Shown here: positions 21,525 to 59,246 of the stretch, piece after piece
Position numbering within the stretch: position 1 is the stretch's first letter
Layout: the number at the start of each line of letters is the position of its first letter
Assembly: GCA_049903315.1 (NCBI GenBank)
Contig: JBNGBT010000004.1
Span: forward strand, 192,001-256,000
DNA: 64,000 nt
Origin: Candidatus Cloacimonadota bacterium
GTDB lineage: Bacteria; Cloacimonadota; Cloacimonadia; JGIOTU-2
Direction of reading: 5' to 3'
Notes under the pieces: generated by a model
What the model was told of the DNA's origin: nothing
Seen by the model: only the letters and a program-made list of their open reading frames with translations
Databases searched by the model: none
Made by a program: the position numbers and the translations under genes

Positions 21525-21581
21525 AGAACGTATAGAAATGTAGCACAAGATTCCGATCTTATGTAAGTAAAAGAGATAGTC

Positions 21582-21771
21582 GTTCATTTTCTCCTTGATG
21601 AGAAAACGAACCAAATGAATCACACGCTGATCAAGAAAACACTAAAATTTCATTCATTCAGCTAAAAGAAAAGAACTTATTCTTCCGACACTTCGGAAGA
21701 ATTCAAACAGCTTTCCTTTTTTAACACCTCATTCACAAAATTTCTTAACGTGTTTTCTTAATAGGCGGGAA
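21582..21771. repeat. ~190 bp structured non-coding repeat, copy 1
   Basis: Near-identical to 22052-22241; several nested inverted repeats. Confidence 0.9.
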
Positions 21772-22051
21772 TGGATAAGAAAAAATCAAATCCTCTCTAA
21801 ATAAGGGGAGTACGCCAACTGGCGGATACATCATCGCAGGTAAAGCCCAAAGAGATAGTTGCATAATTTAATAATGAAAATTCTAAAGAAGTAAAAATAC
21901 TCATGAATTTTAATCAATCGAAATTGAGAAATTATTGAAAAAGTAACGCATGATTCCAATCTTGCGCGATTCATAACTGAACTGAACACATTAATTATAA
22001 CGATGAGTCGGGTAAATAGTTGGAATTGAAATATAACTGAAAGATAATTAT

Positions 22052-22241
22052 GTTCATTTTCTCCTTGATGAGAAAACGAACCAAAAGAATCACCCGCTGA
22101 TCAAGAAAACACTAAAATTTCATTCATTCAGCTAAAAGAAAAGAACTTGTTCTTCCGACACTTCGGAAGAACTCAGACAGCTTTTCTTTTTAAACGCTTC
22201 ATTCACAAAATTTCTTAACGTATTTTCTTAATAGGCGGGAA
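22052..22241. repeat. ~190 bp structured non-coding repeat, copy 2
   Basis: Direct repeat of 21582-21771. Confidence 0.9.
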
Positions 22242-22359: not shown

Positions 22360-22919
22360 TTATTTATACAAATTTTTCATTCGCTGCAGAAGTTCATCAT
22401 TTTCAAGTAAGGCAACAGAATTTGTAATCTGATTTACTGATCCGATTTCAGATTTTATGTGCAGAATGGCTTTGTTCTTTATCTGTTTTTTTTATATGTC
22501 TTGCAAAAATTCCACCATTAATAACGAGATATGGTCTATCATAAAATTCAGTGACTTTAACTTTAAGGGGCTTGGTAATTTTTAAATTATTGTGCATGTG
22601 TGCAATACTTTCATATGCTTTCGAGAGATATTTTTCTCTTTCTTTCCAATTTTCAGAAGAGATAATTTTGTGGAAAAGAGGAGTGAGTTCTTTTGCTGAT
22701 CTTAATTGTGCCAAAGCAGTTCCAAACCATTTGCTGTAAGGCACATATTCTTTTTCCATTAAAAAGCAAAGTCTCATGAGTGACTGGACTAATCGAGCAG
22801 CAATAATGCGAGAACCTAACTCATCCTCCGCATCTCCGCATCTGCCGACAAAAGGTTCCTCTTCAGCAATGTTAGTCCATTCCGATGCAAGAAGGTAAAG
22901 CCAAATATCATGAGGATAA
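22360..22919 (-). pseudogene. 3' half of a DUF4037-family gene, 5'-truncated at the array end and frameshifted
   Basis: YPHDIWLYLLASEW..EEEPFVGRCG..DELGSRIIAARLV..LCFLMEKEYVPYSKWFGT. Removing one A from the A8 tract (22486-22493) restores ...IGSVNQITNS...LYK* ending at 22360. Confidence 0.8.
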
Positions 22920-23036
22920 TGTTTTGCGCATACGGCGGAATCAGCAGGATTCCGTCGTAAAACGAACAGCCAAACACCTGAGCCGGAAGGTTCAGGCAAA
23001 AAGCACTGACCAAACCAACTGACGACACGGCTGTTA
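22917..23036 (-). repeat. attC-like site 6 (distal; outer stem degenerate)
   Basis: + strand TAATgttttgcgcatacggc...cctgagccGGAAggttcagg...gacacggctGTTA, 120 bp. Confidence 0.88.
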
Positions 23037-23162
23037 CACGAATTTTTAGTTATTAATCTCGAAAGAATTAGAAAAAAGCTAACCCTGGTAGCTGACTGGG
23101 ACAATGCCCCAGCCAACGACAGCACCTCGCTCTCCAAATAAATGGAGATCCAGGGAGTTGCT

Positions 23163-23981
23163 TTATTTTCTACGAATTTCATCTATTTGTTTTTTTGCGC
23201 AATGTTTTTTTTTCATCGAAAGACCATCACATATTTCAAAATTATCATTTCGCCATTCAATTTGATTGAAATTTGAAGTTCCTGGCACTTCTGAACCAAG
23301 GAAATACCTTTTATTATTATGAATAATGCCAAAATTTATCGAAGCAGAATCCGGTTTTCTATATAAACCAATTAGTTGTGGAGAACCTCCACAGTTTTTA
23401 TCTCTTATATTAAATAAAGTATCACAAAAACAATGAAAGACATTTCTACTGGTGCTTTTATTTACACCCTGTTGATATCTTTTGTAGTTCTCAATAAATT
23501 CTTGTCTACCAGAACCGAGAACAAATAGTAAATCTGATTGCATAGGCAAATTCATTGTTTCTCTTTTAGAAGTAATTGAGTTTGACCAAGTCATTTTATA
23601 ACATTTGAAATTAGGATAATTATTAACAATTGTGTCTCTGGTAATGTGCATTATGTTTACGATGTTACTTACCAATTTCGGATATTTTGAAAAAGAATGT
23701 GATATTTTTTCGAATACAAGTTTGTTTTTTTTATCACAATTTAGGGTTTTTGTAAAAAGAATATTGGAATCTATCATCTCGATTATTTGAGATAATACTA
23801 TTGATGGAAATAACACATCGCCAGAATAAGCTAATATTTCAGGATATTCTTTTGAGGAAAAAACTTTTTTACCATAATCAAATTTGGTTGTACTATTCCA
23901 TGTAAACCGGCTATCGCCAGCAATATATGCTGACGTTGGTCCGTGTGTGTCAACGCCTAACCAAGAAACGATTAAGGTCAC
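23163..23981 (-). CDS. Cassette 6: Ntn-hydrolase / proteasome-beta-like putative Thr peptidase
   Basis: GGAG RBS then GTG at 23981 gives M-TLIVSW...AGDSR; later VLGSG and GGSPQ motifs. Confidence 0.65.
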   Translation of the reverse strand: MTLIVSWLGVDTHGPTSAYIAGDSRFTWNSTTKFDYGKKVFSSKEYPEILAYSGDVLFPSIVLSQIIEMIDSNILFTKTLNCDKKNKLVFEKISHSFSKYPKLVSNIVNIMHITRDTIVNNYPNFKCYKMTWSNSITSKRETMNLPMQSDLLFVLGSGRQEFIENYKRYQQGVNKSTSRNVFHCFCDTLFNIRDKNCGGSPQLIGLYRKPDSASINFGIIHNNKRYFLGSEVPGTSNFNQIEWRNDNFEICDGLSMKKKHCAKKQIDEIRRK

Positions 23982-24012
23982 TTTTATCTCCAACTAATTA
24001 CAAAATTTCGTG

Positions 24013-24130
24013 TAATGTTTTGCGTGTGCGGCGGAATCAGAATGATTCAGCCGAGACAAACAGCCCAAACCCTGAACCGGAAGGTTCAGGACAGAAGCAC
24101 TGACCAGCCCTACAGCCGACACGCTTGTTA
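24013..24130 (-). repeat. attC-like site 5
   Basis: TAATgttttgcgtgtgcggc...gccgacacgcttGTTA, 118 bp. Confidence 0.92.
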
Positions 24131-24136
24131 AGTGCA

Positions 24137-25168
24137 TCAATCCAAAACATCTCTTCCACTTGTATAAGTAACTTCAATTGTTTCATTGAAAACTAATTTT
24201 TGGCTATCACTTGTAAATGATCTTGCAGAAGAAGCCGGAGTTTCAGATAATAATGTTATTTGATCAGTTACCATATCCCAAACCATGAATTTAGAGAACT
24301 CATCTATATAGGCAAGTTTATTTCCGTCAGGAGAGATTTTAGGAAAGGTTCCTGAGAATAAATGTGAAACGGAATAGTTAGATGTATTGAGTAGATAAAT
24401 TTCATCATCGTCCTCAAAAACAACTTTTGATCTATCTTCGCACATTGATAATTGTATTAAAAATCCTTCATAAATGTATTGATTATTAGTACCATCAGTA
24501 TTAATTACATAGATACCTGGTTCAGAGAAGTATTTGCCATTTACATAGATAAGAGTGTTTTCATCAATCCAATCAACAGATGAATATGAGTTTTCCGATG
24601 AAAATTCAGAATCAACTACTACATCGATGTAACCGTCTAAATTGCGAAATTTAAGTGACCAAAGAACACTGTCTGGTAGCTCAAAATAATGTTTCTGAAT
24701 ATATGCAAAATATTCATAATTTGGTGATGGTTTTACATAACCTTCTACGATAGAATCAGTATTTGTTAGAACCTCAACAGTTCCAGATTCAATCGAACCT
24801 AAATAAATGTCACAATCAATTGAAGTTGGACCCCAGAAGATTATTTTGTTTAAATTTGGGAACAACTCAAAATCACTAATATCGTAATTGGTTGTATCAG
24901 TTGGTAGGATAGTATTTATACTTAAAGTGTTTAAATCGAGTGAAACAATTTGATCATAAGGGTAACTAATCTTAGTTTTATGTAGGATTTTTGAGTTATT
25001 ATCATAAAAAATAGAATGTCCTGCACTATAATCTGTGAGTTGAATTTTGTTTGTACCATCGCAATTAATCATTGTTAGATAGTCATAATAGTAAGTTTCA
25101 GTTATTGGTTCACAACCAATTATAAATAGAACTAATACAACCGAAATGCTATAAGCTAAATATTTCAT
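24137..25168 (-). CDS. Cassette 5: lipoprotein with a TolB-like beta-propeller
   Basis: MKYLAYSISVVLVLFIIGC lipobox; INTDGTN and ISPDGNKLAY repeats. Confidence 0.75.
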   Translation of the reverse strand: MKYLAYSISVVLVLFIIGCEPITETYYYDYLTMINCDGTNKIQLTDYSAGHSIFYDNNSKILHKTKISYPYDQIVSLDLNTLSINTILPTDTTNYDISDFELFPNLNKIIFWGPTSIDCDIYLGSIESGTVEVLTNTDSIVEGYVKPSPNYEYFAYIQKHYFELPDSVLWSLKFRNLDGYIDVVVDSEFSSENSYSSVDWIDENTLIYVNGKYFSEPGIYVINTDGTNNQYIYEGFLIQLSMCEDRSKVVFEDDDEIYLLNTSNYSVSHLFSGTFPKISPDGNKLAYIDEFSKFMVWDMVTDQITLLSETPASSARSFTSDSQKLVFNETIEVTYTSGRDVLD

Positions 25169-25196
25169 TCCTTTTACTCCATACTTTTGATGCACT

Positions 25197-25314
25197 TAAT
25201 GTCTTGCGTATGCGGCGGGATCAGAATGATCACGCCAAAACAACCAAGCAAACACCTGAGCCGGAAGGCTCAGGACAAAAGAACCGAAAAGCCCAACAGC
25301 CGATACGCCTGTTA
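25197..25314 (-). repeat. attC-like site 4
   Basis: TAATgtcttgcgtatgcggc...gccgatacgcctGTTA, 118 bp. Confidence 0.92.
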
Positions 25315-25353
25315 CAGGCAGTTTAAGATGAAATATTCTACACATAATTTAAA

Positions 25354-25866
25354 TCACCAGATATATTTGCATCTTACAAGGTATTTTACACCTTCATCAG
25401 TAACTGTATATGATTTTCGTCTTTTCTTATTAATAAATCCATCTAAATATCCATTATCTTTTAAATATCCAAATGCAATTAGTGTTTTAAGATATGCAGT
25501 TATTGTTGATTCTTTGAAACCTACCGCTTCGGCATATTTATCTTTAAAAAAACAAGGTGCTTCGTTCGTTAACAAAACAAATAAAAGTCTTCTTAGGTGT
25601 TTTTTATTTGGTAGTTTTAATTTACGATTTTTATATAAGCAAATAGAGGTGTAGACAAGTGATAGAATTACAAAACACATTAATATTATTGATAATCTCA
25701 ACATTGGTAGTGATATTTTACTGTGTAACGATAACTGCTGTAATAATTTTGAGAAAAATGGGAAAAATTGAAGACCTGAAGGAGATAAAATTGGGATTAC
25801 TATTTGTAGGATTGATACAATATCTCTCCATGTTAATTTGTTGTTATTTTTATCTTTTTCACTCAC
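25354..25866 (-). CDS. Cassette 4: hypothetical membrane protein with a possible C-terminal winged helix
   Basis: GAGG RBS and GTG start; hydrophobic N-half; YLKTLIAFGYL...YTVTDEGVKYL wHTH-like tail. Confidence 0.6.
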   Translation of the reverse strand: MSEKDKNNNKLTWRDIVSILQIVIPILSPSGLQFFPFFSKLLQQLSLHSKISLPMLRLSIILMCFVILSLVYTSICLYKNRKLKLPNKKHLRRLLFVLLTNEAPCFFKDKYAEAVGFKESTITAYLKTLIAFGYLKDNGYLDGFINKKRRKSYTVTDEGVKYLVRCKYIW

Positions 25867-25911
25867 TTCATCCTCTCAATTAAAACAATAAAAAAATACA
25901 GCAACTGCCTG

Positions 25912-26031
25912 TAATGTTTGGCGTGTGCGGCGGAATCAGAAGGATTCCGTCGTAAAACAAACAACCCAAACCCTGAACCGAAAGGTTCAGGCAAAACACA
26001 CCACGAAACCGAACAGCCGACACGCTTGTTA
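25912..26031 (-). repeat. attC-like site 3
   Basis: TAATgtttggcgtgtgcggc...gccgacacgcttGTTA, 120 bp. Confidence 0.92.
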
Positions 26032-26061
26032 AACGCATATATCATAAAATTTCACCGAAAC

Positions 26062-26712
26062 TCAATTACGAAAATAATCTGAATCAGCCAAGATTATTTG
26101 CTTATTCGTATGAAAAATTCCTGTAACATTTGTATATATTTTTGAAATTACTGGTGGAGGATAATTTGTTTTAATTAAAAAAACAACCCAACCATTATTC
26201 TCACTAATTTGATTTCCTCTCCAGTTAAACTTTTTCCCATTATCATATAATCCTTTTCCACCTGTAAAATTAGAACTTGATCTTCGATACTCATAATTTA
26301 TTGAATCAACAGGTTGTTCAAATATTAGAGTAAATTCAAAATTATTAATTGGTTTTTTAGTAATGTTTTTGAAACCAAGCTCATAATATTTATTTGTATT
26401 TTGGTAGGGTTGAGGATTTTTAATTTTTTGATAGAACAATTCATATTTGGGAATAGAAACATTGTCTTCAGAGTTTTCAAAATTGTAGTTAATTATTACA
26501 TCACTATTATCACCTTCCGTTGAAATTGCAGGTGAGAAAGAACCATCTGTAGTATTATGTATTTCCTTATACTCATCTTCTTTTGGATTAATAATGAATT
26601 TAGTTACCAGAGTTAATGCGAATGATATTATTGCTAAATAAGATACAAAGACAGTTATCTTTGTTGGAAAACTCCAAGCTTTCCATTGTTTTCTTGAAGG
26701 AATAAATTTCAT
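26062..26712 (-). CDS. Cassette 3: hypothetical protein with an N-terminal membrane anchor
   Basis: ORF fills the cassette; single TM segment near the N-terminus. Confidence 0.65.
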   Translation of the reverse strand: MKFIPSRKQWKAWSFPTKITVFVSYLAIISFALTLVTKFIINPKEDEYKEIHNTTDGSFSPAISTEGDNSDVIINYNFENSEDNVSIPKYELFYQKIKNPQPYQNTNKYYELGFKNITKKPINNFEFTLIFEQPVDSINYEYRRSSSNFTGGKGLYDNGKKFNWRGNQISENNGWVVFLIKTNYPPPVISKIYTNVTGIFHTNKQIILADSDYFRN

Positions 26713-26749
26713 TTATCAACCCCACAAAACTCAATAATTAATATGCGTT

Positions 26750-26868
26750 TAATGTTTTGCGTGTGCGGTGTGATCGGAACGATCACGCCAACCCAAACAA
26801 ACCAGCCGTTTGAATCGTAAGATTCAAACAAAGAGCACTGACCAACCCGAACAACGACACGCCTGTTA
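26750..26868 (-). repeat. attC-like site 2
   Basis: TAATgttttgcgtgtgcg...tttgaatcGTAAgattcaaa...cgacacgcctGTTA, 119 bp. Confidence 0.92.
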
Positions 26869-26880
26869 GGCACATTTTAC

Positions 26881-27522
26881 TTATGTAGAAAAATCAAGTT
26901 CCTGAGATCTTGTATATGATTGTGCTCTGGGAATTGATATTGGTATATTCTGAATTATGGGATTATTTTTTTGAGGTTCATAAATTATTGATAAATCAGC
27001 ATTAACAGGTAACAAATTGGAACTAATTTCATGTGTTAAACCATAGTCTTTTGCTTCAGTCGGATTAAGTGTAGTTCGATTATTCATGTCCTCGAATATT
27101 TTATCGGTTGATTTTCCTGTATTGTCAGCTATAACTCTTGCAATATTTAATTGATCAATTTTTAATCCATTTAAGTGTTCTTCTATTTGCTTTTCGTCTA
27201 AGCTAACGTTACCATTGAAATTAAATCTTACTCCATGAAGAAGGAACCTTGAGTGGGGAACTGAAAAACGTTTTTCTCCAGCGCAATAAATTACAACACC
27301 AATTGAATCAACGCTACCAAAATTATACGTGTCAATTTTTATTGGAGCTCCTTTGAGATAGTTATAAATGGACAGACCATGAAAGACAGAACCTCCTGGA
27401 GAAGAAATCATTAAATGTAGTTTTTCAAATTTTTGAGCGATTTTTTGATCAATTATCCGTAATAGTTGATCACTTGTTTGCGGAATTACGGGAGCCATAA
27501 ATCTAATGTAACATTCTTTCAT
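26881..27522 (-). CDS. Cassette 2: ClpP-family protease subunit (divergent)
   Basis: ISSPGGSV, GSVDSIG (Ser), RFLLH (His) and LNPTEAKDYGL motifs; GGAGG RBS. Confidence 0.85.
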   Translation of the reverse strand: MKECYIRFMAPVIPQTSDQLLRIIDQKIAQKFEKLHLMISSPGGSVFHGLSIYNYLKGAPIKIDTYNFGSVDSIGVVIYCAGEKRFSVPHSRFLLHGVRFNFNGNVSLDEKQIEEHLNGLKIDQLNIARVIADNTGKSTDKIFEDMNNRTTLNPTEAKDYGLTHEISSNLLPVNADLSIIYEPQKNNPIIQNIPISIPRAQSYTRSQELDFST

Positions 27523-27556
27523 TTTACTTTACCTCCAATTTTTTTTTAAATGTGCC

Positions 27557-27676
27557 TAATGTTTGGCGTGTGCGACGGGATCGGAACGATCACGCCCAAA
27601 ACAAACCGACCAGCCGTTTGAATCGGAAGATTCAAACAAAGAGCACTGACCAACCCTACTGCCGACACGCTTGTTA
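27557..27676 (-). repeat. attC-like site 1 (proximal)
   Basis: TAATgtttggcgtgtgcg...cgacacgcttGTTA, 120 bp. Confidence 0.92.
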
Positions 27677-27774
27677 GCTACATCTTTTTCTATTTCAATT
27701 ACTTACATTTTAAACTTATTTAAGTAAAGAATTTTATTGTTGTTCTTGGATAAATGGGTGTCATAATTAATTCT

Positions 27775-28248
27775 TCATTTTTTTATCTGAAACCATTCTG
27801 ATTCAATTTTACCTTGTGGATAAAAACCTTTGTAAGGCGACCCAGGCATATTTATAAATGGCGAGTGCATATATATAATGTCTCCAATTAATTTAAAGCT
27901 ATATTTGCCTTTGATTGGGGCAATTACTTTATATTTGTCAGGATAATTGAAAATTGTGAAACCCTGTTTAGTCGGTAATAAACGTTTTTTTTTGAGCTTA
28001 TTATTTTCATTTTTATAAAGAATAAAAAGATTTGACGAATAATAAAAATCAGGATTATCAATTCCTTTAATATCTACAGAAAAAGTTAGAGTATCTAATT
28101 TTGTGGAAATGTCAGAAGTTATTAAAGAAATACTTCTATGTTTATAAAGATTCGAGATATAATTATAACTTACTTTAGTATTGAAGTTATATGCACATGA
28201 AGATAACAAAAATAAGAAACACGCTGATTTTAATAATTTTATTAGCAT
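27775..28248 (-). CDS. Cassette 1: hypothetical lipoprotein
   Basis: MLIKLLKSACFLFLLSSC lipobox; ORF fills the cassette. Confidence 0.65.
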   Translation of the reverse strand: MLIKLLKSACFLFLLSSCAYNFNTKVSYNYISNLYKHRSISLITSDISTKLDTLTFSVDIKGIDNPDFYYSSNLFILYKNENNKLKKKRLLPTKQGFTIFNYPDKYKVIAPIKGKYSFKLIGDIIYMHSPFINMPGSPYKGFYPQGKIESEWFQIKK

Positions 28249-28302
28249 ATTATTAACCTAAAAATATTTTCCAATTCTCCATCCATTTCATTTAGATGTA
28301 GC

Positions 28303-28400
28303 TAATGTTTGTATACCCGACCAAAAGGTCGTGTATATTACGATTAAATTTCCTATAAGGTCGTATACAATACAATATATAAGTTATATACGAACTTGTT
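28303..28400 (-). other. attI-like primary insertion site directly downstream of the recombinase
   Basis: Carries the same TAATgtttg end as the attC-like sites but an unrelated body; AAGGTCGT direct repeats at 28325 and 28357; hairpin 28311-28338. Confidence 0.7.
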
Positions 28401-28412
28401 TTAATTATGAAA

Positions 28413-29477
28413 TTATGTTTCATCTAACTTCAAATTATCCAATGGACTTTTAATTTTGTTTCTTGCTGTATGTGTAACATGGGTATATATCTCTGTTGTT
28501 CTTGAGCTTTTGTGCCCTAAAAGTTCTTGAATATACCTCAAATCAGTCCCATGCTCCAATAAATGAGTAGCAAAACTATGCCGTAAAGTATGTATTGAAG
28601 CATGTTTCTTTACTCCAGATTTGTTTACAGCTGCTTTAAATAATTTTTGTATTACTCTCCTACTGAATTGTTCTCCGTATTTGCTTTCAAACAGCCATTT
28701 CTTTGGTTTATAAACCTTATAATATGTTCTTAGTAAATCTAATACGGTATCTGAAAGAATGCCGTATCTATCCTTGTTGCCTTTTGCGCTTCGAATAAAT
28801 ATCTGTTTTCGATCAGAATGAATGTCGGATATTCTCAAATGTACAACTTCTGTTAAACGTAATCCTGCAGAATAGATCAAATAGATAATACATTTATATT
28901 TCAGGTTCTTGACCTGTTTCAATATTTTTGTTACTTCTTCCTCGCTTAGAACTTCCGGTAGCTTTTTTTCTTTTCTTGGTCGAGGAACGTAATATTTTTC
29001 AACAGGTTTTCCCAGCACTTTTTCATAATAAAACTTTATACTGTTTATTGCTTGATTCTGTGCAGAAGTGGAATATTTCTTCTTATCTACCAGGTATAAC
29101 AAATATTTACGGATCTGTTCATGTGTGATATCTTTCAATTTAGTGTTTTGATAATATTTTAAAAACCGCTGAAAATGAAGACGATAAGTTTTAATGGTTG
29201 CGTCACTATAGTTTTTCAATTTCAAAGTTTCAATGTATTCAGAAGGGAAATCTAGTTTTGTATCAGTATCTTCTATGAATTCTAATTTACCTTTGAATTT
29301 CGTATGTAAAACACTAATGATATTTTTTTGATAGGGGATATGCCAGAACTTATTTGAAGCAGACCACTTTCTGCCTTCTATCTGTTTAATCTGTCTAATC
29401 GTATTTATGTCATAATCAAACAGTAGAGCAATACGTCTCTGCTTATCAATCAAATATTCCTTAGTCTTTATCTGCAT
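28413..29477 (-). CDS. Tyrosine recombinase (array-associated integrase) with a SAM-like core-binding domain and an extra N-terminal domain
   Basis: YSAGLR, AKGNKDR, HTLRHSFATH, LLGH and TTEIYTH catalytic motifs intact; NYS..TIKTY...STSAQNQAINSIKFYY. Confidence 0.95.
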   Translation of the reverse strand: MQIKTKEYLIDKQRRIALLFDYDINTIRQIKQIEGRKWSASNKFWHIPYQKNIISVLHTKFKGKLEFIEDTDTKLDFPSEYIETLKLKNYSDATIKTYRLHFQRFLKYYQNTKLKDITHEQIRKYLLYLVDKKKYSTSAQNQAINSIKFYYEKVLGKPVEKYYVPRPRKEKKLPEVLSEEEVTKILKQVKNLKYKCIIYLIYSAGLRLTEVVHLRISDIHSDRKQIFIRSAKGNKDRYGILSDTVLDLLRTYYKVYKPKKWLFESKYGEQFSRRVIQKLFKAAVNKSGVKKHASIHTLRHSFATHLLEHGTDLRYIQELLGHKSSRTTEIYTHVTHTARNKIKSPLDNLKLDET

Positions 29478-40734: not shown

Positions 40735-40988
40735 TGTTTACGGCAGTTTTTCGGTAAAAAATTGGAAATTTTAGTTTATAATACCCATACTGCAAGTTAT
40801 ACGATTACTGATCATAAACGTGAAGAGGGAATACCGGCAGGATTGTTGAGGGATTGAGATAAATTCTTGACAGACTCCATTGAGTATATCGAAACCATAA
40901 TCAAATAATTATGCTGTTAATAGAGATACAATTTGCTATTAATGTACATTCATAAACTGTAATTTATAAATGAAACTGGAGATAGAAA

Positions 40989-42461
40989 ATGAAAAAAAGA
41001 TTTATTGCTTTTAGTGTTGTATTTTTTACTATGTTATTTGTCTTTACAAGCATAAAATTAACACAATGTTATGCACACGACAGCGAAGAAGTAAATCTTC
41101 AGATCATCACAGAGGATTTAGCGCCTTATAATTTTAGATCTGAAGATGGAGAGATCACTGGTCGATCCACAGATGTGGTGAAGGAGATATTATCTCGGCT
41201 TAGTTTGAATATCGAAATTCAACTTATGAATTGGAATAAGGCGTATGCAATGGCTCTTTCTAAGCCGGATGTCATCCTTTATTCAACCTTTCGCACCGAC
41301 GATCGCGAAAATCTATTCCAATGGGTTGGTCCAATTGCATCTGATGAGATATTGTTCTATGCATTAAAGGGATCGGCTCTTGTCATCCGCAGTCTTGAAG
41401 ATGCTAAAGCAGTTTCAGCGATCGGGGTAGTAAAGGATGATGCTCGTCATCAACTGCTTGTGCAGAATAATTTCACGAATTTGAAACTTTATCCAACTGA
41501 TGTGGAGTGTTACAAAGCTCTTGCAAATGGAGAAGTTGATCTCGTATTGGGAATCAATGCAAGTATGGCTATGATGGCAGGTCAGGCGGGTTTGGATCCG
41601 TCTGAATTGACATCGGTTTATTCCGTAAGAAAAACTCCGATCTATATTGCTTTTAATAAAAATATTTCGTCCGATATTGTGGAAGAGTGGCAGAACACAC
41701 TTAATCAAATAAAACGAGACGGGACATTTGATAATATAAATGAACGTTGGGGTGGCGGAACTATACAGGGTTACACGAAATCAGATACAGGCATTGGGAT
41801 AACCTCGATTGCCGCAACACAACTCCTTGCAGGATATGTTGACCTTCGTCTTGGTGAATTTCTTGCTGTGTTGCAAACTTTATCCTATACAGATCAAGTC
41901 CGTTCAGGAAACTGGGAAAAAATGAAACCACTTCTCGTTGAGCGCGAAAACGCAGAGCAAGCTGGACGCATTTGGTACCTGTTACCTGATGGTTCATATT
42001 GTACTACTGTGGATGATCTCACGAGCAAGAATCTAAAAAGCCGTTCATATTTCCCTGGTTTGATCGCAGGAAACTCCGTTCTTGGTTCAGTCGTTGTGAG
42101 TAAATCTACAGGCAAACCAGTAGCCGTTGTAGCTGCTCCGATTATAAAGAATGACAAGGTAGCAGGAGCACTCGGCACTTCGATCTACATGCAGGAAATT
42201 AATGATGAAATCCGAGATACATTCCCGTTACAGTCTAATCAGATGTTTTTTGCAGTCGCAAATGATGGGGTCATTTCTTTACATTCAGATGATGAATGGA
42301 TAGGGCAGCAGATAGGTAATATCAACAGTGATCTGGAGTCAAATTTAGTTAAGGATTCTGGTGAGTGCAATTTTACATTTGACGGAAAGGACTGGCATGC
42401 AGTGTGGACAACTGCACCCAAAACAGGATGGCGCATTGTCATCGCTAGTATAATGAATTAA
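40989..42461 (+). CDS. Family-3 (polar amino acid) solute-binding domain fused to a Cache domain
   Basis: TEDLAPYNF...RTDDRENLFQWVGP; C-half RSYF...VSKSTGKPVAVVAAPI...TGWRIV. Confidence 0.8.
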   Translation: MKKRFIAFSVVFFTMLFVFTSIKLTQCYAHDSEEVNLQIITEDLAPYNFRSEDGEITGRSTDVVKEILSRLSLNIEIQLMNWNKAYAMALSKPDVILYSTFRTDDRENLFQWVGPIASDEILFYALKGSALVIRSLEDAKAVSAIGVVKDDARHQLLVQNNFTNLKLYPTDVECYKALANGEVDLVLGINASMAMMAGQAGLDPSELTSVYSVRKTPIYIAFNKNISSDIVEEWQNTLNQIKRDGTFDNINERWGGGTIQGYTKSDTGIGITSIAATQLLAGYVDLRLGEFLAVLQTLSYTDQVRSGNWEKMKPLLVERENAEQAGRIWYLLPDGSYCTTVDDLTSKNLKSRSYFPGLIAGNSVLGSVVVSKSTGKPVAVVAAPIIKNDKVAGALGTSIYMQEINDEIRDTFPLQSNQMFFAVANDGVISLHSDDEWIGQQIGNINSDLESNLVKDSGECNFTFDGKDWHAVWTTAPKTGWRIVIASIMN

Positions 42462-42536
42462 TTTTATGTGATTTCTTGACAGAAATTGCACTCTAGTTTG
42501 GAAGGTTAATAGTCAATAATCTTCGAGGAGAAAAGA

Positions 42537-43331
42537 ATGAAAAACAGGATGATTGTTTTTGGTGTTGTATTTTTTGCCATAATATTTATATTTACAGGTC
42601 AGAAAATAACAAAATGTTTTGCGCAGGACAATGAAGAAGTAAACTTACAGATCATCACAGAGGATTTCGCTCCCTATAATTTTAGATCTGAAGATGGAGA
42701 GATCACGGGACGTTCTACAGATGTGGTTGAGGAAATATTATCACGACTTAGTTTGAATATCGAAATTCAACTTATGAACTGGAATAAGGCCTATGCAATG
42801 GCTCTCTCGAAGCCGGATGTAATTCTTTATTCAACCTTTCGCACCGATGATCGTGAAAATCTTTTTCAATGGGTTGGTCCAATTGCAACTGATGAAATGT
42901 TGTTCTATGCGCTTCAAGGTTCAGATATTGTGATCGACAGTCTGGAAGATGTAAAGGAAGTTGCAGCGATTGGAGTAGTGAAGGATGATGCCCGTCATCA
43001 ACTGCTTGTACGGAACAATATAATGAATCTGAAACTTTATCCGACCGATATGCAGTGTTACAGGGCTTTGGCAACCGGTGAAGTCGAACTCGTACTTGGA
43101 AGCAATGCGACCATGGCTATGATGGCAGGCCAGGCAGGTGTGGCTGCATCTGAACTGAAACCGGTCTATTCCGTGAAAAAGACTCCACTCTATATTGCTT
43201 TTAGTAAAAATATTTCACCAGATATTGTGGAAGAATGGCAAAGTACACTTAATGAAATGATACAAGATGGAACATTGGATACTATCAATCAAAGTTGGAC
43301 TGTTACAGCCATACAGGATAGCACGCAATAA
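42537..43331 (+). CDS. Family-3 solute-binding protein, paralog of the N-half of the upstream gene
   Basis: Long near-identical stretches with 40989-41750. Confidence 0.87.
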   Translation: MKNRMIVFGVVFFAIIFIFTGQKITKCFAQDNEEVNLQIITEDFAPYNFRSEDGEITGRSTDVVEEILSRLSLNIEIQLMNWNKAYAMALSKPDVILYSTFRTDDRENLFQWVGPIATDEMLFYALQGSDIVIDSLEDVKEVAAIGVVKDDARHQLLVRNNIMNLKLYPTDMQCYRALATGEVELVLGSNATMAMMAGQAGVAASELKPVYSVKKTPLYIAFSKNISPDIVEEWQSTLNEMIQDGTLDTINQSWTVTAIQDSTQ

Positions 43332-54989: not shown

Positions 54990-57119
54990 ATGAAAAAATT
55001 TATCCTTATTGGGATAGCTCTGTCTCTCATTGCGTGTGCATATCTTCAACCTGTTAGCGAATCAAAAACAGCAATCAAGCCCGAACCTCCGATAGCAAAG
55101 AAAATTCCGTATGAAACTTCTATCCATGACACTTTTCTGGTTGATTACTACTATTGGATGAAAGATAAAACACGAACCGATCCCGACGTGATTGCGCATA
55201 TAGAAAAAGAAAATACTTATACTGATAGCATATTGCTTCACACAACTGAATTGCAGGAGCATCTTTACCAGGAGATTGTTGGCAGGATTCAGAAAACAGA
55301 TATTTCCGTTCCAGTCCGTATCGACAGTTTTTATTACTACTGGAAAGATATTGAAGGAAAAGAATATTCAATATATTGCAGAAAGAAATGCGTGCCCGAT
55401 GCTGAAGAGGAAATAATACTTGATGTGAATGAACTGGCCTCCGGGCATGAATTTTACGATGTATCTGATATTGCTTTGAGTCCGGATCATAAGTATATTG
55501 CGTATGCTGTTGATACAACCGGAGCAGAGCGTTACACGCTTACTATAGAGAATATTAATGAACATACCTTTTTACCTGATACTGCCTATCCCGTCAGTGA
55601 TGTTGTATGGGCAGAAGACAATAAGACGATGTTTTATACTATAGAAAATGAGGTGGGAAGAAGCGATAAACTCTATCGGCATGTTCTTGGTACTGAACGG
55701 AAAGAAGATGAACTGCTCTTTCAGGAAAATGATAGGGCATATTATGTGTGGATATATAAATCGAAAAATAGAGAATATCTAATATTTACTACTGGCAGTG
55801 AAACAACGTATGAAGTCCGATTCCTGAAAGCAGATGATCCATTTGGTGAATTTAAGATCGTCCAACCGCGGGAACAGGATCACAGGTATTATATCTGTCC
55901 CCATATGAATGACTTCTATATTGTATCAAATGATGATGCGCAAAATTATAAGGTGATGATCACTTCCGTTGACAATCCGGGGAAAGAAAACTGGAAGGAA
56001 ATCATTCCCCAGAGGGATTCAGTTTCAATTGATATTGAAATATTCAAAGATTATATGGTTATATATGAACAGCAAAATGCGTTACGAAAAATCAGAATAA
56101 TAAATATTAACACAAATGAAGAATATTATATAGATTTTCCTGAGCCGTTCTATTCTATTTTTGCAATGAGGAATCCTAATTTTGCTACTCATATTTTCAG
56201 ATTTTCCTATGAGTCTATGGTGACACCGAGATCTATTTATGACTATAATATGGAAACAAGGGAACGAGAATTGAGGAAAAGTCAGGAGATTCCAAGCGGG
56301 TATGATGCATCTCAATATAACTACGAAAGGGTTTTTGCAAAAGCTCTGGATGGCACACCAATTCCAATCTCGTTAGTGTATAAAAAAGATCTATTCTCAA
56401 AAGATGGTAAGAATCCTTTGGTGCTTTATGCCTATGGTTCTTATGGGGACTGCATTGATCCTTATTTTTCTACAAGTCGATTATCTCTTCTCAATCGTGG
56501 TTTTGTTTATGCGATTGCGCATGTGCGCGGGGGGGGTGAAAATGGGGAACAGTGGTATGATCAGGGAAGACTCCTCAATAAGAAGAATACATTCACGGAT
56601 TTCATTGCCTGCGAGGAATATCTTATTCAGGAACATTATACAAGCACGGAAAAACTCGTGATCGAAGGAGCAAGTGCAGGTGGCTTGCTTATAGGCGCGG
56701 TTTTGAATATGCGACCGGAATTATGCGAGATTGCAATTGCGGATGTCCCTTTTGTGGACTTGATCTATACATCACTTGATACAACTTTATCTGCAGTTGA
56801 ATGGCATTATGATGAATTTGGAAATCCTCTGAATGAAGAAGAATATGATTATATGATATCCTACTGTCCCTATCAAAATGTAAAAGCTCAGCGTTATCCT
56901 CATATTCTTGCGTTAGGTGGATTTTATGATCCCAGGGTCAACTACTGGGAGCCGGCGAAATGGATTGCAAAGATCCGCGAAAACAAGCTGGATGACAATC
57001 TTGCGCTGCTTAAAATTCAACTTTCTGGTCACGCTGGGGCAACAGGAAGATTTTCTTATTTACGAGAAGTGGCACTGAAGTATGCCTTTATATTTGATAT
57101 TCTCGGGATTCAGTTTTAG
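54990..57119 (+). CDS. ptrB: Oligopeptidase B (S9A) with a lipoprotein signal, paralog 1
   Basis: LIAC lipobox; AHVRGGGE, GASAGG, DPRVNYWEPAKW and GH motifs. Confidence 0.88.
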   Translation: MKKFILIGIALSLIACAYLQPVSESKTAIKPEPPIAKKIPYETSIHDTFLVDYYYWMKDKTRTDPDVIAHIEKENTYTDSILLHTTELQEHLYQEIVGRIQKTDISVPVRIDSFYYYWKDIEGKEYSIYCRKKCVPDAEEEIILDVNELASGHEFYDVSDIALSPDHKYIAYAVDTTGAERYTLTIENINEHTFLPDTAYPVSDVVWAEDNKTMFYTIENEVGRSDKLYRHVLGTERKEDELLFQENDRAYYVWIYKSKNREYLIFTTGSETTYEVRFLKADDPFGEFKIVQPREQDHRYYICPHMNDFYIVSNDDAQNYKVMITSVDNPGKENWKEIIPQRDSVSIDIEIFKDYMVIYEQQNALRKIRIININTNEEYYIDFPEPFYSIFAMRNPNFATHIFRFSYESMVTPRSIYDYNMETRERELRKSQEIPSGYDASQYNYERVFAKALDGTPIPISLVYKKDLFSKDGKNPLVLYAYGSYGDCIDPYFSTSRLSLLNRGFVYAIAHVRGGGENGEQWYDQGRLLNKKNTFTDFIACEEYLIQEHYTSTEKLVIEGASAGGLLIGAVLNMRPELCEIAIADVPFVDLIYTSLDTTLSAVEWHYDEFGNPLNEEEYDYMISYCPYQNVKAQRYPHILALGGFYDPRVNYWEPAKWIAKIRENKLDDNLALLKIQLSGHAGATGRFSYLREVALKYAFIFDILGIQF

Positions 57120-59246
57120 ATGAAAAAAGTTACTATTTTTATTTTTATTTTGTTTCTGGGTTCCTGTGCATCTCAAACAATCAAAAAAGAATATACTCTG
57201 TATCCGCACTTGGTGCCGCCAGTTGCAAAAAAAATCCCCACATCAACAACGCTGCATGGCGTCGAACTGAAAGATAATTATGCATGGATGATAGATGACA
57301 CACGAACCGACTCTGCTGTCATATCATATATCGAGGCAGAAAATCTCTATGCAGAGGAAATCCTTTCTGATATGTCTGCACTCAAAGATACGATATTCAA
57401 TGAGATAATTGGCAGGATAGGCGAAGAAGATGTGAATGCTCCCACTCGCTGGGGTGATTATTATTACTATTCACGAAGGGAAGAGGGTAAACCCTATTTG
57501 ATCTATTGCAGAAAATTGGGATCGCTTGCAGCCACAGAAGAGATTGTCCTGGATTTGAATAAACTTGCACAAGGGCACGATTTTTTTTCTGTAGGGAGAA
57601 GGGAGTACAGTCCTGACCAAACTTTGCTGGCATATACTGTTGACGTTACTGGTGATGAGCGATACACGCTATACATCAAGGATATTGAAGCTGACACATT
57701 GCTTTCCGATGAGATGTATCTCGTAAATGATGTGGAATGGGCAAATGATAATAAAACCATTTTTTATGTAACGCCAAATGAAGATAACCTGAAAAGTAAA
57801 CTCGCATATCGGCATGTTCTGGGAACCGATCCGTCAGAAGATGAGCTGCTCTACAGAGAAAATGATAATGCATTCTATGTGTGGTTTGGCAGAACGCGGT
57901 CGAATGATTATATCGTTCTTGGAACAAACAGCAGAACAACATCTGACGCTCGCTATCTCGATGCGGACAATCCCGAAGGAGACTTCACACTCTTTCAACC
58001 ACGAGTGCAGGATGTGAAGTATTATATGACCAATAATGATTCAACTTTATACATCAGAACTAATGAATCAGCTCCGAATTATAAGATCATGACCACTCAA
58101 TGGAACGATCGCTTTCAATGGAAAACCTTCATTCCGCACTGCGATTCTGTCTATATTGATGGATTCGATGTTTTTGAGAAGTATCTCGTTGTGTACGAGC
58201 AACATAGCGGTGTAATCAAACCACATATTTTCCTTCTTGAAGATGGTACGGATTATTATATGACATTTCCCGAAGATGTGTATGCTTTCTCCAGCAGATG
58301 GACTCCGGATTTTGATACGGACACATTATACTATTCCTATTCCTCGCTCACCACGCCATCGTCTGTATATGCGTATAATATGAAAACAAAAGAAAGAGTC
58401 CTTCTCAAACGATACGAGGTGATTGGGAGCTTCGATCCTGAACAGTATCAGTCCGAGCAGATCTATGCGACATCACACGACGGCACAAAGGTTCCGATTT
58501 CTCTTGTCTATAAAAAAGATCTCTTCAAACAAGACGGAACCAATCCGCTGTATCTCACTGCGTATGGCGCGTATGGGAGCAGCAGAAGTGCCGGGTTTTC
58601 TCGGATACGTATAAGTTTGCTTGATAGGGGATTTGTTTATGCAATTGCGCATGTCCGTGGTGGAAAAGAGAAGGGCGAGCAGTGGTATGAGCAAGGGAAA
58701 TTACTCAATAAGAAAAATACATTTCTCGATTATATCGCGTGTGCGGAATATTTAGTTGAGAATCATTACACAAATCCTTCAAAGCAAGCTGCTTTTGGTG
58801 CTAGTGCAGGTGGCATGTTGATGGGAGTTGTGGCAAACTGGCGTCCTGATCTTTTTGAAGTTATTGTTGCGGACGTGCCATCTATGGACAAGCTGACTGT
58901 GCTCATGGACTCGACTGCTTCCGGCACACAATATCATTATGATGAACTGGGGAATCCGTACAAGAAGGAGTATTTTGATTACCTGCTGTCCTGGGATACC
59001 TACCAAAACATCAAAAAACAGGACTACCCGAATATGATGCTCACTGCCGGCTTTAATGACAGCCGTGTCCGCTACTGGCAGCCCCTCCGCTGGACAGCAA
59101 AAGTCCGCGATATGAAAACAGACAATAATGTGATCATACTCAAAACAAATATGGCTGGACATTATGGAGGTTCTGGCAGATACACGCAATACGAGGATAT
59201 TGCAGAACGATATGCCTTTATTATTCGCATGTTGGGTGTAGAATGA
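57120..59246 (+). CDS. ptrB: Oligopeptidase B (S9A) with a lipoprotein signal, paralog 2
   Basis: LGSC lipobox; GASAGG, DSRVRYW and AGHYGGSGR motifs. Confidence 0.88.
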   Translation: MKKVTIFIFILFLGSCASQTIKKEYTLYPHLVPPVAKKIPTSTTLHGVELKDNYAWMIDDTRTDSAVISYIEAENLYAEEILSDMSALKDTIFNEIIGRIGEEDVNAPTRWGDYYYYSRREEGKPYLIYCRKLGSLAATEEIVLDLNKLAQGHDFFSVGRREYSPDQTLLAYTVDVTGDERYTLYIKDIEADTLLSDEMYLVNDVEWANDNKTIFYVTPNEDNLKSKLAYRHVLGTDPSEDELLYRENDNAFYVWFGRTRSNDYIVLGTNSRTTSDARYLDADNPEGDFTLFQPRVQDVKYYMTNNDSTLYIRTNESAPNYKIMTTQWNDRFQWKTFIPHCDSVYIDGFDVFEKYLVVYEQHSGVIKPHIFLLEDGTDYYMTFPEDVYAFSSRWTPDFDTDTLYYSYSSLTTPSSVYAYNMKTKERVLLKRYEVIGSFDPEQYQSEQIYATSHDGTKVPISLVYKKDLFKQDGTNPLYLTAYGAYGSSRSAGFSRIRISLLDRGFVYAIAHVRGGKEKGEQWYEQGKLLNKKNTFLDYIACAEYLVENHYTNPSKQAAFGASAGGMLMGVVANWRPDLFEVIVADVPSMDKLTVLMDSTASGTQYHYDELGNPYKKEYFDYLLSWDTYQNIKKQDYPNMMLTAGFNDSRVRYWQPLRWTAKVRDMKTDNNVIILKTNMAGHYGGSGRYTQYEDIAERYAFIIRMLGVE

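Follow-up and report, generated by a model that had tools for sequence, protein, structure and literature searches.

The 64,000-nucleotide (nt) stretch of Candidatus Cloacimonadota DNA analysed here (the window; positions 192,001 to 256,000 of contig JBNGBT010000004.1) carries on its minus strand a tyrosine recombinase gene and, behind its 3' end, an array of six gene cassettes. Our analysis suggests that this locus is probably a chromosomal integron-like gene-capture platform that uses the recombinase family of rAID-1 (recombinase-associated acquired interbacterial defence of gut Bacteroidales; Ross et al., bioRxiv 10.1101/471110; PMC12247911) and acts on hairpin-shaped recombination sites. 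A sequence-only reading of the window had described an intact recombinase at 28413-29477 followed by six single-gene units on the same strand, and the junctions located here give exactly those units. The features of the locus are listed below, with open reading frame (ORF) and protein lengths in amino acids (aa); 'pairing' is the match between the first bases of a cassette and the left arm of its own site.

28413..29477, minus strand: tyrosine recombinase, 354 aa, with a HARP-like N-terminus, a Phage_int_SAM_4 core-binding domain and a catalytic domain without the insertion typical of integron integrases (IntI).
29262..29477, minus strand: HARP-like N-terminal domain of the recombinase (residues ~1-72), a separate alpha/beta domain in the structural model.
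28303..28400, minus strand: attI-like site behind the recombinase stop codon, with two short inverted repeats, then an A|TT core; crossover between 28306 and 28305.
27560..28305, minus strand: cassette 1, 746 nt; ORF 27775-28248, 157 aa, no family match; site R1 27557-27676; pairing 12 nt.
26753..27559, minus strand: cassette 2, 807 nt; ORF 26881-27522, 213 aa, ClpP-like (PF00574, 96.3 bits); site R2 26750-26868; pairing 12 nt.
25915..26752, minus strand: cassette 3, 838 nt; ORF 26062-26712, 216 aa, no family match; site R3 25912-26031; pairing 12 nt.
25200..25914, minus strand: cassette 4, 715 nt; ORF 25354-25866, 170 aa; site R4 25197-25314; pairing 12 nt.
24016..25199, minus strand: cassette 5, 1184 nt; ORF 24137-25195, 352 aa (protein of ~342-352 aa), lipoprotein-like start; site R5 24013-24130; pairing 13 nt.
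22920..24015, minus strand: cassette 6, 1096 nt; ORF 23163-23993, 276 aa, widespread hypothetical family; site R6 22917-23036; pairing 9 nt.
22448..22919, minus strand: 5'-truncated DUF4037 gene that is fused to the last junction and lacks a site; it covers positions 42-101 only of PF13228.

All seven crossover junctions (28305, 27559, 26752, 25914, 25199, 24015 and 22919, minus strand) read A|TT; an extra motif match at 26363, within an ORF and with no site, was set aside. Each cassette contains one long co-oriented ORF and, as had been noted, is AT-rich, with bodies of 0.25-0.32 G+C in a window of about 0.40; the repeats reach 0.49-0.54. The six repeats, 118-120 nt long with a mean column identity of 75%, are homologous as claimed, but they are branched imperfect hairpins and not the simple palindromes first described.

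The end pairing is specific to each unit: the first bases of every cassette match the left arm of its own site over 9-13 nt, whereas all 36 other combinations of junction and arm pair over 3-5 nt only. Such pairing is possible only once the unit is closed into a circle, and by its sequence it marks the cassettes as putative excisable circles closed by a hairpin. In line with this, the sites in their circular form have folding z-scores of -2.4 to -5.7 and are predicted to be more stable than the in-array form in six of six cases. Compensatory changes occur at 10 of the 18 consensus pairs across 14 sites from this and related genomes, in the outer stem and in two inner hairpins. Of 72 sites across the family, 62 have the better predicted fold on the bottom strand. 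In addition, a symmetric search over 73 sites from eight arrays gave a perfect inner stem in 58 (15 lack one), and in every one of these 58 the loop next to the core has an excess of 2-4 bases on the R' arm.

The first junction lies about 105 nt past the recombinase stop codon, inside a conserved site. Its layout is kept behind close homologues, where Cloacimonadota copies end in A|TT and most Bacteroidota copies in G|TT, a core comparison that rests partly on ten hand-picked rows; from this arrangement we infer that the site functions as attI. At the other end, the array runs into the DUF4037 gene fragment. No matching left arm was found downstream of the fragment, nor a match to it in 20 relatives with the query used, and the joint is probably the product of an off-target crossover inside the DUF4037 gene.

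A seventh cassette occurs alone elsewhere in the same genome, behind an orphan attI-like stretch and with no recombinase near:

L110:6215-7377, contig C69: solo cassette encoding a DUF4238 protein of 315 aa (PADLOC DUF4238-Pers, E 1e-53); pairing 13 nt.

The cargo of the window array is poorly characterized. Pfam and NCBIfam models recognise no immunity family among the six ORFs and leave five of them without a firm family, and PADLOC gives no firm match to any of the six cassettes. The cassette 4 protein has weak C-terminal winged-helix matches (E 0.016) and the cassette 5 protein a weak PD40 propeller match (E 0.036), all below cut-off; for the cassette 6 protein there are look-alike clusters at 0.98, one of which has PF00227 on 14% of its members and is a lead only. 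Among 21 metagenome homologues of the ClpP-like cassette 2, five (two of them near-identical) show own-end pairing of at least 7 nt with different site sequences.

The recombinase has an intact set of catalytic motifs (R207, H296-x-x-R299, H322 and Y331). It narrowly passes the NF040815 model (221.1 against a cut-off of 220) and falls below the IntI-specific TIGR02249 (227.9 against 265), which bears out the view that it is not an IntI; the TIGR02249 match comes in two pieces that flank the insertion. NF011946 also fails (143.7 against 435), as do the XerC and XerD models (195.8 against 329.6 and 187.5 against 335.15). The alpha-I2 insertion (hereafter I2), which the sequence-only reading had found missing, is indeed absent. 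The interval between the KG..K.R and H..RH motifs is 58 aa in the window enzyme, 100 aa in four IntI from relatives and 65 aa in XerD. Among proteins in which the interval could be parsed, it measures 58-59 aa in 74 of 76 from the loci and in 101 of 102 database homologues; 90 of 150 IntI-like representatives could be parsed too, and these have 99-111 aa. The alignment to VchIntIA (2a3v) breaks at this point (query 249/271, chain 177/242), and the window enzyme likewise lacks the insertion in an alignment with IntI1.

Phylogenetic analysis of the core, with insertion columns removed, groups IntI, the insertion-less family and the recombinases coupled to IS91 apart from XerC/D (support 97/93 in a first tree; 100 in a second by the SH-like approximate likelihood ratio test), and the branch that parts the window family from XerC/D is long and well supported. 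The enzyme, whose short interval had been called Xer-like, is thus not simply Xer-like and falls with IntI in the trees. IntI itself forms one clade (98/100 in the first tree, 100 in the second). The cassette-heading enzymes form a group at just 84 in the second tree and no resolved group in the first. Approximately unbiased tests reject neither a pairing of the window enzyme with IntI alone (p 0.38) nor its placement as the first branch outside Xer (p 0.30), so that a sister and an ancestral relation to IntI both fit. In the first tree the bootstrap had not settled and three alphaproteobacterial IS91 rows sit on a branch of 6.08 (probably wrong ORFs); the second tree omits these three, a short recombinase and another 21 rows. 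Neither tree includes archaeal XerA or Treponema IntI.

Members of the family occur in Bacteroidota, in 37 of 120 evenly drawn genomes (centre genome not counted) and in 27 of the 38 genomes of the family around a Bacteroides genome. The window's own repeat family is found in 11 of 60 other genomes of its phylum (in all 4 from the same family and in none of the 28 from another) and stands behind homologues in loci L007, L009, L093, L113 and L117. Contig ends fall within 600 nt of the recombinase gene downstream in 36 of 80 loci and upstream in 7 of 80, and chains of at least two signature cassettes occur downstream in 5 of 24 loci and upstream in 0 of 56. Such chains include 14 units in a row in Nibribacter and 10-11 in a Bacteroidales genome, among others, with unrelated-looking sites of 57-60, 81, 118 and 120-123 nt. 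The association of homologues with arrays of this kind, proposed as a check on the original claim, is thus borne out by repeat family and signature chains alike.

The position of the array follows the subtype of the recombinase. Among loci with the N-terminal domain, 17 of 19 have more sites downstream and co-oriented, as in the window; among those without it, 10 of 13 show the reverse, an excess of upstream, divergent sites, as classical integrons do. The downstream position reported for the window is therefore correct here and is not a family-wide rule. These counts derive from 40 of 43 other matches in the 120-genome sample (three at contig ends were left out), of which 32 have 3 kb on both sides, and the loci are kin and not independent trials. 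Members of about 280 aa with neither insertion nor N-terminal domain stand at the head of divergent arrays in L167, L169, L172, L173, L175, L177, L178, L182 and L183, with sites of the same style as the family arrays. Upstream of the recombinase in L173, gene-less 93-nt units lie between adjoining sites three times, each with its own end pairing.

The resemblance of the N-terminal domain to HARP rests on three weak, concordant results below the Pfam cut-off: PF07443 matches 35 of 84 aligned homologues at E of at most 0.05 (best 1.2e-5), the window protein itself giving no match; a family profile hits SMARCAL1 (4o66) at E 0.086; and modelled residues 1-72 superpose on the N-terminus of T4 UvsW (1rif; Z 5.8, root-mean-square deviation 2.6, 60 residues), which we take to share a common fold with HARP. 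When modelled alone the domain is poor (predicted local distance difference test score, pLDDT, 52), and an atlas look-up gave scores all below 0.9. The domain may aid binding of a folded junction, and it is not generally required. A rule that HARP replaces I2 was rejected on the 10 of 13 domain-less loci with more sites upstream, on enzymes of rAID-type arrays, whose N-termini do not match the HARP-like profile, and on 6 of 150 IntI-like proteins that carry a HARP-like domain, all six with the 100-aa interval (P0130, P0132, P0141, P0172, P0184 and P0202, with full insertion). In two members (L129:11614-13068 and L157; 484 and 582 aa) the N-terminus is extended and matches the N-terminal-domain profile region more than once.

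From the observed anatomy, end pairing, co-occurrence of enzyme and array and absence of IntI, we infer a mechanism in which the window recombinase would excise a cassette between two sites as a circle. The 9-13 bp end pairing would close the folded, excised site into a hairpin, whose terminal box and inner stem (GCGTGT with ACACGC) the enzyme would bind. It would then join one strand of this folded substrate to the attI-like site, so that new cassettes would enter first in line. The structure would be read via the asymmetric loop, with its 2-4 extra R'-arm bases, in place of the extrahelical bases that the I2 helix of IntI docks. Transcripts probably reach the cassettes by read-through from the recombinase side; a promoter scan found 6 candidates where 8.1 were expected, none above chance.

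Several observations weigh against this mechanism. According to PMC7790495, the I2 helix is the feature that enables single-strand recombination, and it is absent here; nor does the enzyme have an I2 helix to block a second exchange. The bottom strand folds better in just 2 of the 6 window sites, and sites within one array are not independent observations. The chain detector found fewer than two cassettes in 19 of 24 and 24 of 33 loci, so that many homologues have no detected array, and many family copies in relatives are broken. IS91-coupled recombinases without an array fall among the family in both trees, and family membership alone is therefore no predictor of cassette activity. In contigs from four runs (four studies) there is no clean excision or circle joint, a check on assemblies that drop rare variants, and the array is identical in all four runs, which may all represent the source sample. 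The joints listed inside the array in these contigs contain 16-25 extra letters, are of low depth and resemble related sites from other organisms.

Some of these points would also fit the same platform and enzyme working by ordinary double-strand, two-exchange recombination of the Xer kind, with the hairpin as a pair of inverted binding sites or a trace of cassette making. The missing I2 insertion, the inverted repeats of the attI-like site, the lack of a bottom-strand preference in the window's own sites and a predicted fold about equally near XerA (Z 23.1) and IntI (Z 21.9) agree with this, as does the ancestral double-strand activity that IntI is reported to retain (PMC7790495). Yet the sequence of the end pairing varies freely among cassettes while 9-13 nt of it are kept, the sites range from 41 to ~125 nt with little common sequence but a constant loop asymmetry, and the stems show compensatory changes, all of which make this explanation rather improbable in our view. 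Still less probable, to the point of being very unlikely, is that a canonical IntI, since lost, unassembled or left in a donor, laid down the cassettes and that the neighbouring recombinase is a bystander, for instance the helper of an IS91-like element. IntI does occur in relatives within the family (L119-L123), G|TT and TAAC cores fit IntI preferences, IS91-coupled recombinases are close kin and the genome is not closed. However, a genome-wide search found no IntI in this 96.4%-complete assembly that could account for the array; the first junction lies in a conserved site a short distance behind the recombinase stop codon; the array side switches with recombinase subtype; no IS91 transposase adjoins the window gene; and no such repeat appears in the stretches around seven canonical IntI loci (five from relatives; some flanks short).

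It is also conceivable, though unlikely, that the family works as described and the window copy is a frozen relic that no longer shuffles. The identity of the array across the four runs, the termination of the array in a truncated gene and the decay of the recombinase to fragments at this locus in sister genomes would be expected of such a relic. Set against these are the intact enzyme and six intact ORFs, the perfect pairing of all six cassette ends over 9-13 nt, and the nature of the run data, since contigs lose rare variants and the runs may be one source. The equivalent position was compared in nine relatives: it is empty in two, where the LUD gene stands directly beside dnaX, and has decayed remnants in three (a 3' recombinase fragment with attI-like remains in two, an attI-like site alone in one). 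The platform has therefore been gained, lost and is decaying within the genus.

We now compare the gene-capture platform with hairpin sites with known systems. The closest is rAID-1, which is recognised by a recombinase of the 'XerD-family', by low-G+C genes in the same orientation and by repeats between them that recall integrons; it is reported in 226 of 423 Bacteroidales genomes (10.1101/471110). Its criteria are a 5' recombinase more than 44% identical to BF9343_RS08045, at least two co-oriented downstream genes of at most 41% G+C, repeated intergenic motifs, and orphan immunity genes as cargo in a Bacteroidales host. As stand-ins we used Bacteroidales immunity-gene arrays behind homologues in P. 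distasonis (L213) and B. ovatus (L214), which were reached via plasmid searches. The L214 and L213 recombinases, standing in for BF9343_RS08045, are 48% and 47% identical to the window enzyme over ~277 aa, and rAID-type enzymes nest inside the window family in the trees. Both arrays have own-end pairing of 8-11 nt (5 units in L213 and 9 in L214, one within-gene pairing being set aside), an A|TT core and the same loop asymmetry as the window family. The window array in turn has six co-oriented downstream genes, with bodies well under the 41% G+C limit, and repeated intergenic motifs that differ in length and sequence from those of L213 and L214: its sites are 118-120 nt long, compared with 41-45 nt in the rAID-type arrays. 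Its host is a member of the Cloacimonadota and not of the Bacteroidales, its cargo includes no recognised immunity family, and the rAID-type N-terminus does not match the HARP-like profile. The window system is a marine relative of the gut Bacteroides rAID, of the same recombinase family and working like rAID-1; it is not classed as rAID-1 because its host and recognisable cargo depart from the definition and the identity criterion was checked only via stand-ins.

The available text of 10.1101/471110 contains no analysis of crossover, circle or missing insertion and no recombination assay; its motif figure and supplements, which lie outside this comparison, may describe the sites further. A literature search that covered few subscription journals found no account of how cassettes and crossovers are built, of the absent insertion, of sites with an asymmetry that differs from attC or of a range beyond Bacteroidales. 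The suggestion that the system might be undescribed accordingly holds for these aspects and fails for the rest: this kind of system is already in print as rAID-1, and the locus is not categorically new.

With integrons the window locus shares one-gene cassettes, a fixed crossover before TT, a TAAC inverse core, end pairing in the circular form and an attI-like entry site. The Phage_int_SAM_4 domain is common to both enzymes, IntI is the nearest characterised clade in the trees, and the co-oriented layout resembles that of the 'inverted' Treponema integrons. The window enzyme nevertheless has no I2 insertion, for which reason the locus is not classed as an integron. PMC8138268 describes the insertion as 'not fully conserved' in its integron-like subgroup. 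The core is A|TT and not the classical G|TT, and the extra bases lie on the R' arm, whereas in dfrA14, the one classical site inspected (by eye), the loop is symmetric and it is the R'' arm that holds the extra bases. The HARP-like domain is a further difference, though a few IntI-like proteins have one. IS91-coupled recombinases (NF040815 members from Clostridium and others) share the insertion-less catalytic domain and the length class, but lie directly before an IS91 transposase and have neither N-terminal domain nor array. XerC, XerD and XerA share the catalytic motifs and the short interval, and databases label family members 'XerD'; the window enzyme is far below XerC/D cut-offs and apart from them in the trees.

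Of particular interest is a link to resistance genes. On Acinetobacter plasmids, the gene immediately ahead of tet(X3), which is annotated xerD or tnpF, belongs to the family as a 5'-truncated member, 56.5% identical to residues 136-351 and sister to a Runella member in the first tree (97/96):

L126:5986-8100, and also L127 and L208: truncated 'xerD/tnpF' gene, then an attI-like site, linked to tet(X3).

The attI-like site between the truncated gene and tet(X3) has a G|TT core. In L126 a left arm follows tet(X3), does not pair with the 5' junction (3 nt), and the right half of the site is missing. The segment from truncated 'xerD' to tet(X3) is covered to at least 80% in 51 plasmid records. 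Among 15 resistance genes checked, the full cassette signature was seen only for tet(X) of Empedobacter (L131, 9 nt) and estT of Riemerella (L132, 8 nt); the 12 others besides these and tet(X3) pair over 0-5 nt. Two papers, PMC7473080 among them, report xerD beside tet(X) without a mechanism, and PMC7473080 leaves the link open. The same literature search did not find the 'xerD' beside tet(X3) described as a truncated family member ahead of an attI-like site. To judge from these signatures, the family appears to have packaged tet(X) resistance genes.

A broader interpretation, which we put forward tentatively and hold to be somewhat less likely true than false, is that the insertion-less family is the surviving sister or ancestral form of IntI, in which the capture of hairpin cassettes preceded I2. 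In Bacteroidota, Cloacimonadota and allied phyla it would take the place of integrons as their native counterpart, rAID-1 being one of its branches, and it would have packaged tet(X), estT and other flavobacterial resistance genes as cassettes before they reached Proteobacteria. Surveys that take the I2 insertion as the defining mark of an integron find almost none in Bacteroidetes (PMC4889954, PMC9024848); an I2-less cassette system in about 3 in 10 sampled Bacteroidota genomes would fill that gap. Evolutionary intermediates are described as lacking in PMC7790495. The family would supply them, and how single-strand recombination arose could then be tested directly on an enzyme and sites that occur in nature. 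The family would also provide a mechanism for rAID-1 gene acquisition in the gut and explain the recurrent 'xerD' beside tet(X). Its anatomy, breadth, relation to IntI and tet(X) link run counter to what integron specialists would expect, and would open the origin of IntI to testing.

The contig that holds the window is 272 kb long and belongs to a genome of 2.96 Mb. There are four tyrosine recombinases in this genome, none an IntI; the other three also have a short motif interval, and XerC/D-like genes of the genome's own are present besides the array recombinase. The named relatives nearest to the window enzyme are 73-82% identical and come mostly from Cloacimonadota. An Rfam search of the window gave no matches. 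One further repeat lies near the array:

21561-21771 and 22031-22241: dispersed repeat of 190-210 nt, two copies, between dnaX and the array, unrelated to the cassette sites.

Other copies of this repeat occur on contigs C4, C11 and C22 of the same genome. Tandem paralogous gene pairs lie elsewhere in the window, at 40988-43284 (spacing 1548 nt) and 54990-58773 (spacing ~2130 nt).

In other genomes, multicopy shorter recombinases, probably IS91-coupled, lie inside or beside arrays (G044:C1 near 5498298-5504793 and 1401900-1406334; G045:C3 and C4); one stands directly behind an array recombinase, and such copies may target the hairpins of these arrays. Recombinase 3' fragments lie downstream of sites, as if within the array, at L125:6503-9297 and on G009:C33. 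IS110 elements and a group II intron are inserted in family arrays in the opposite orientation (L128:16257-20039, L129:18905-19963).

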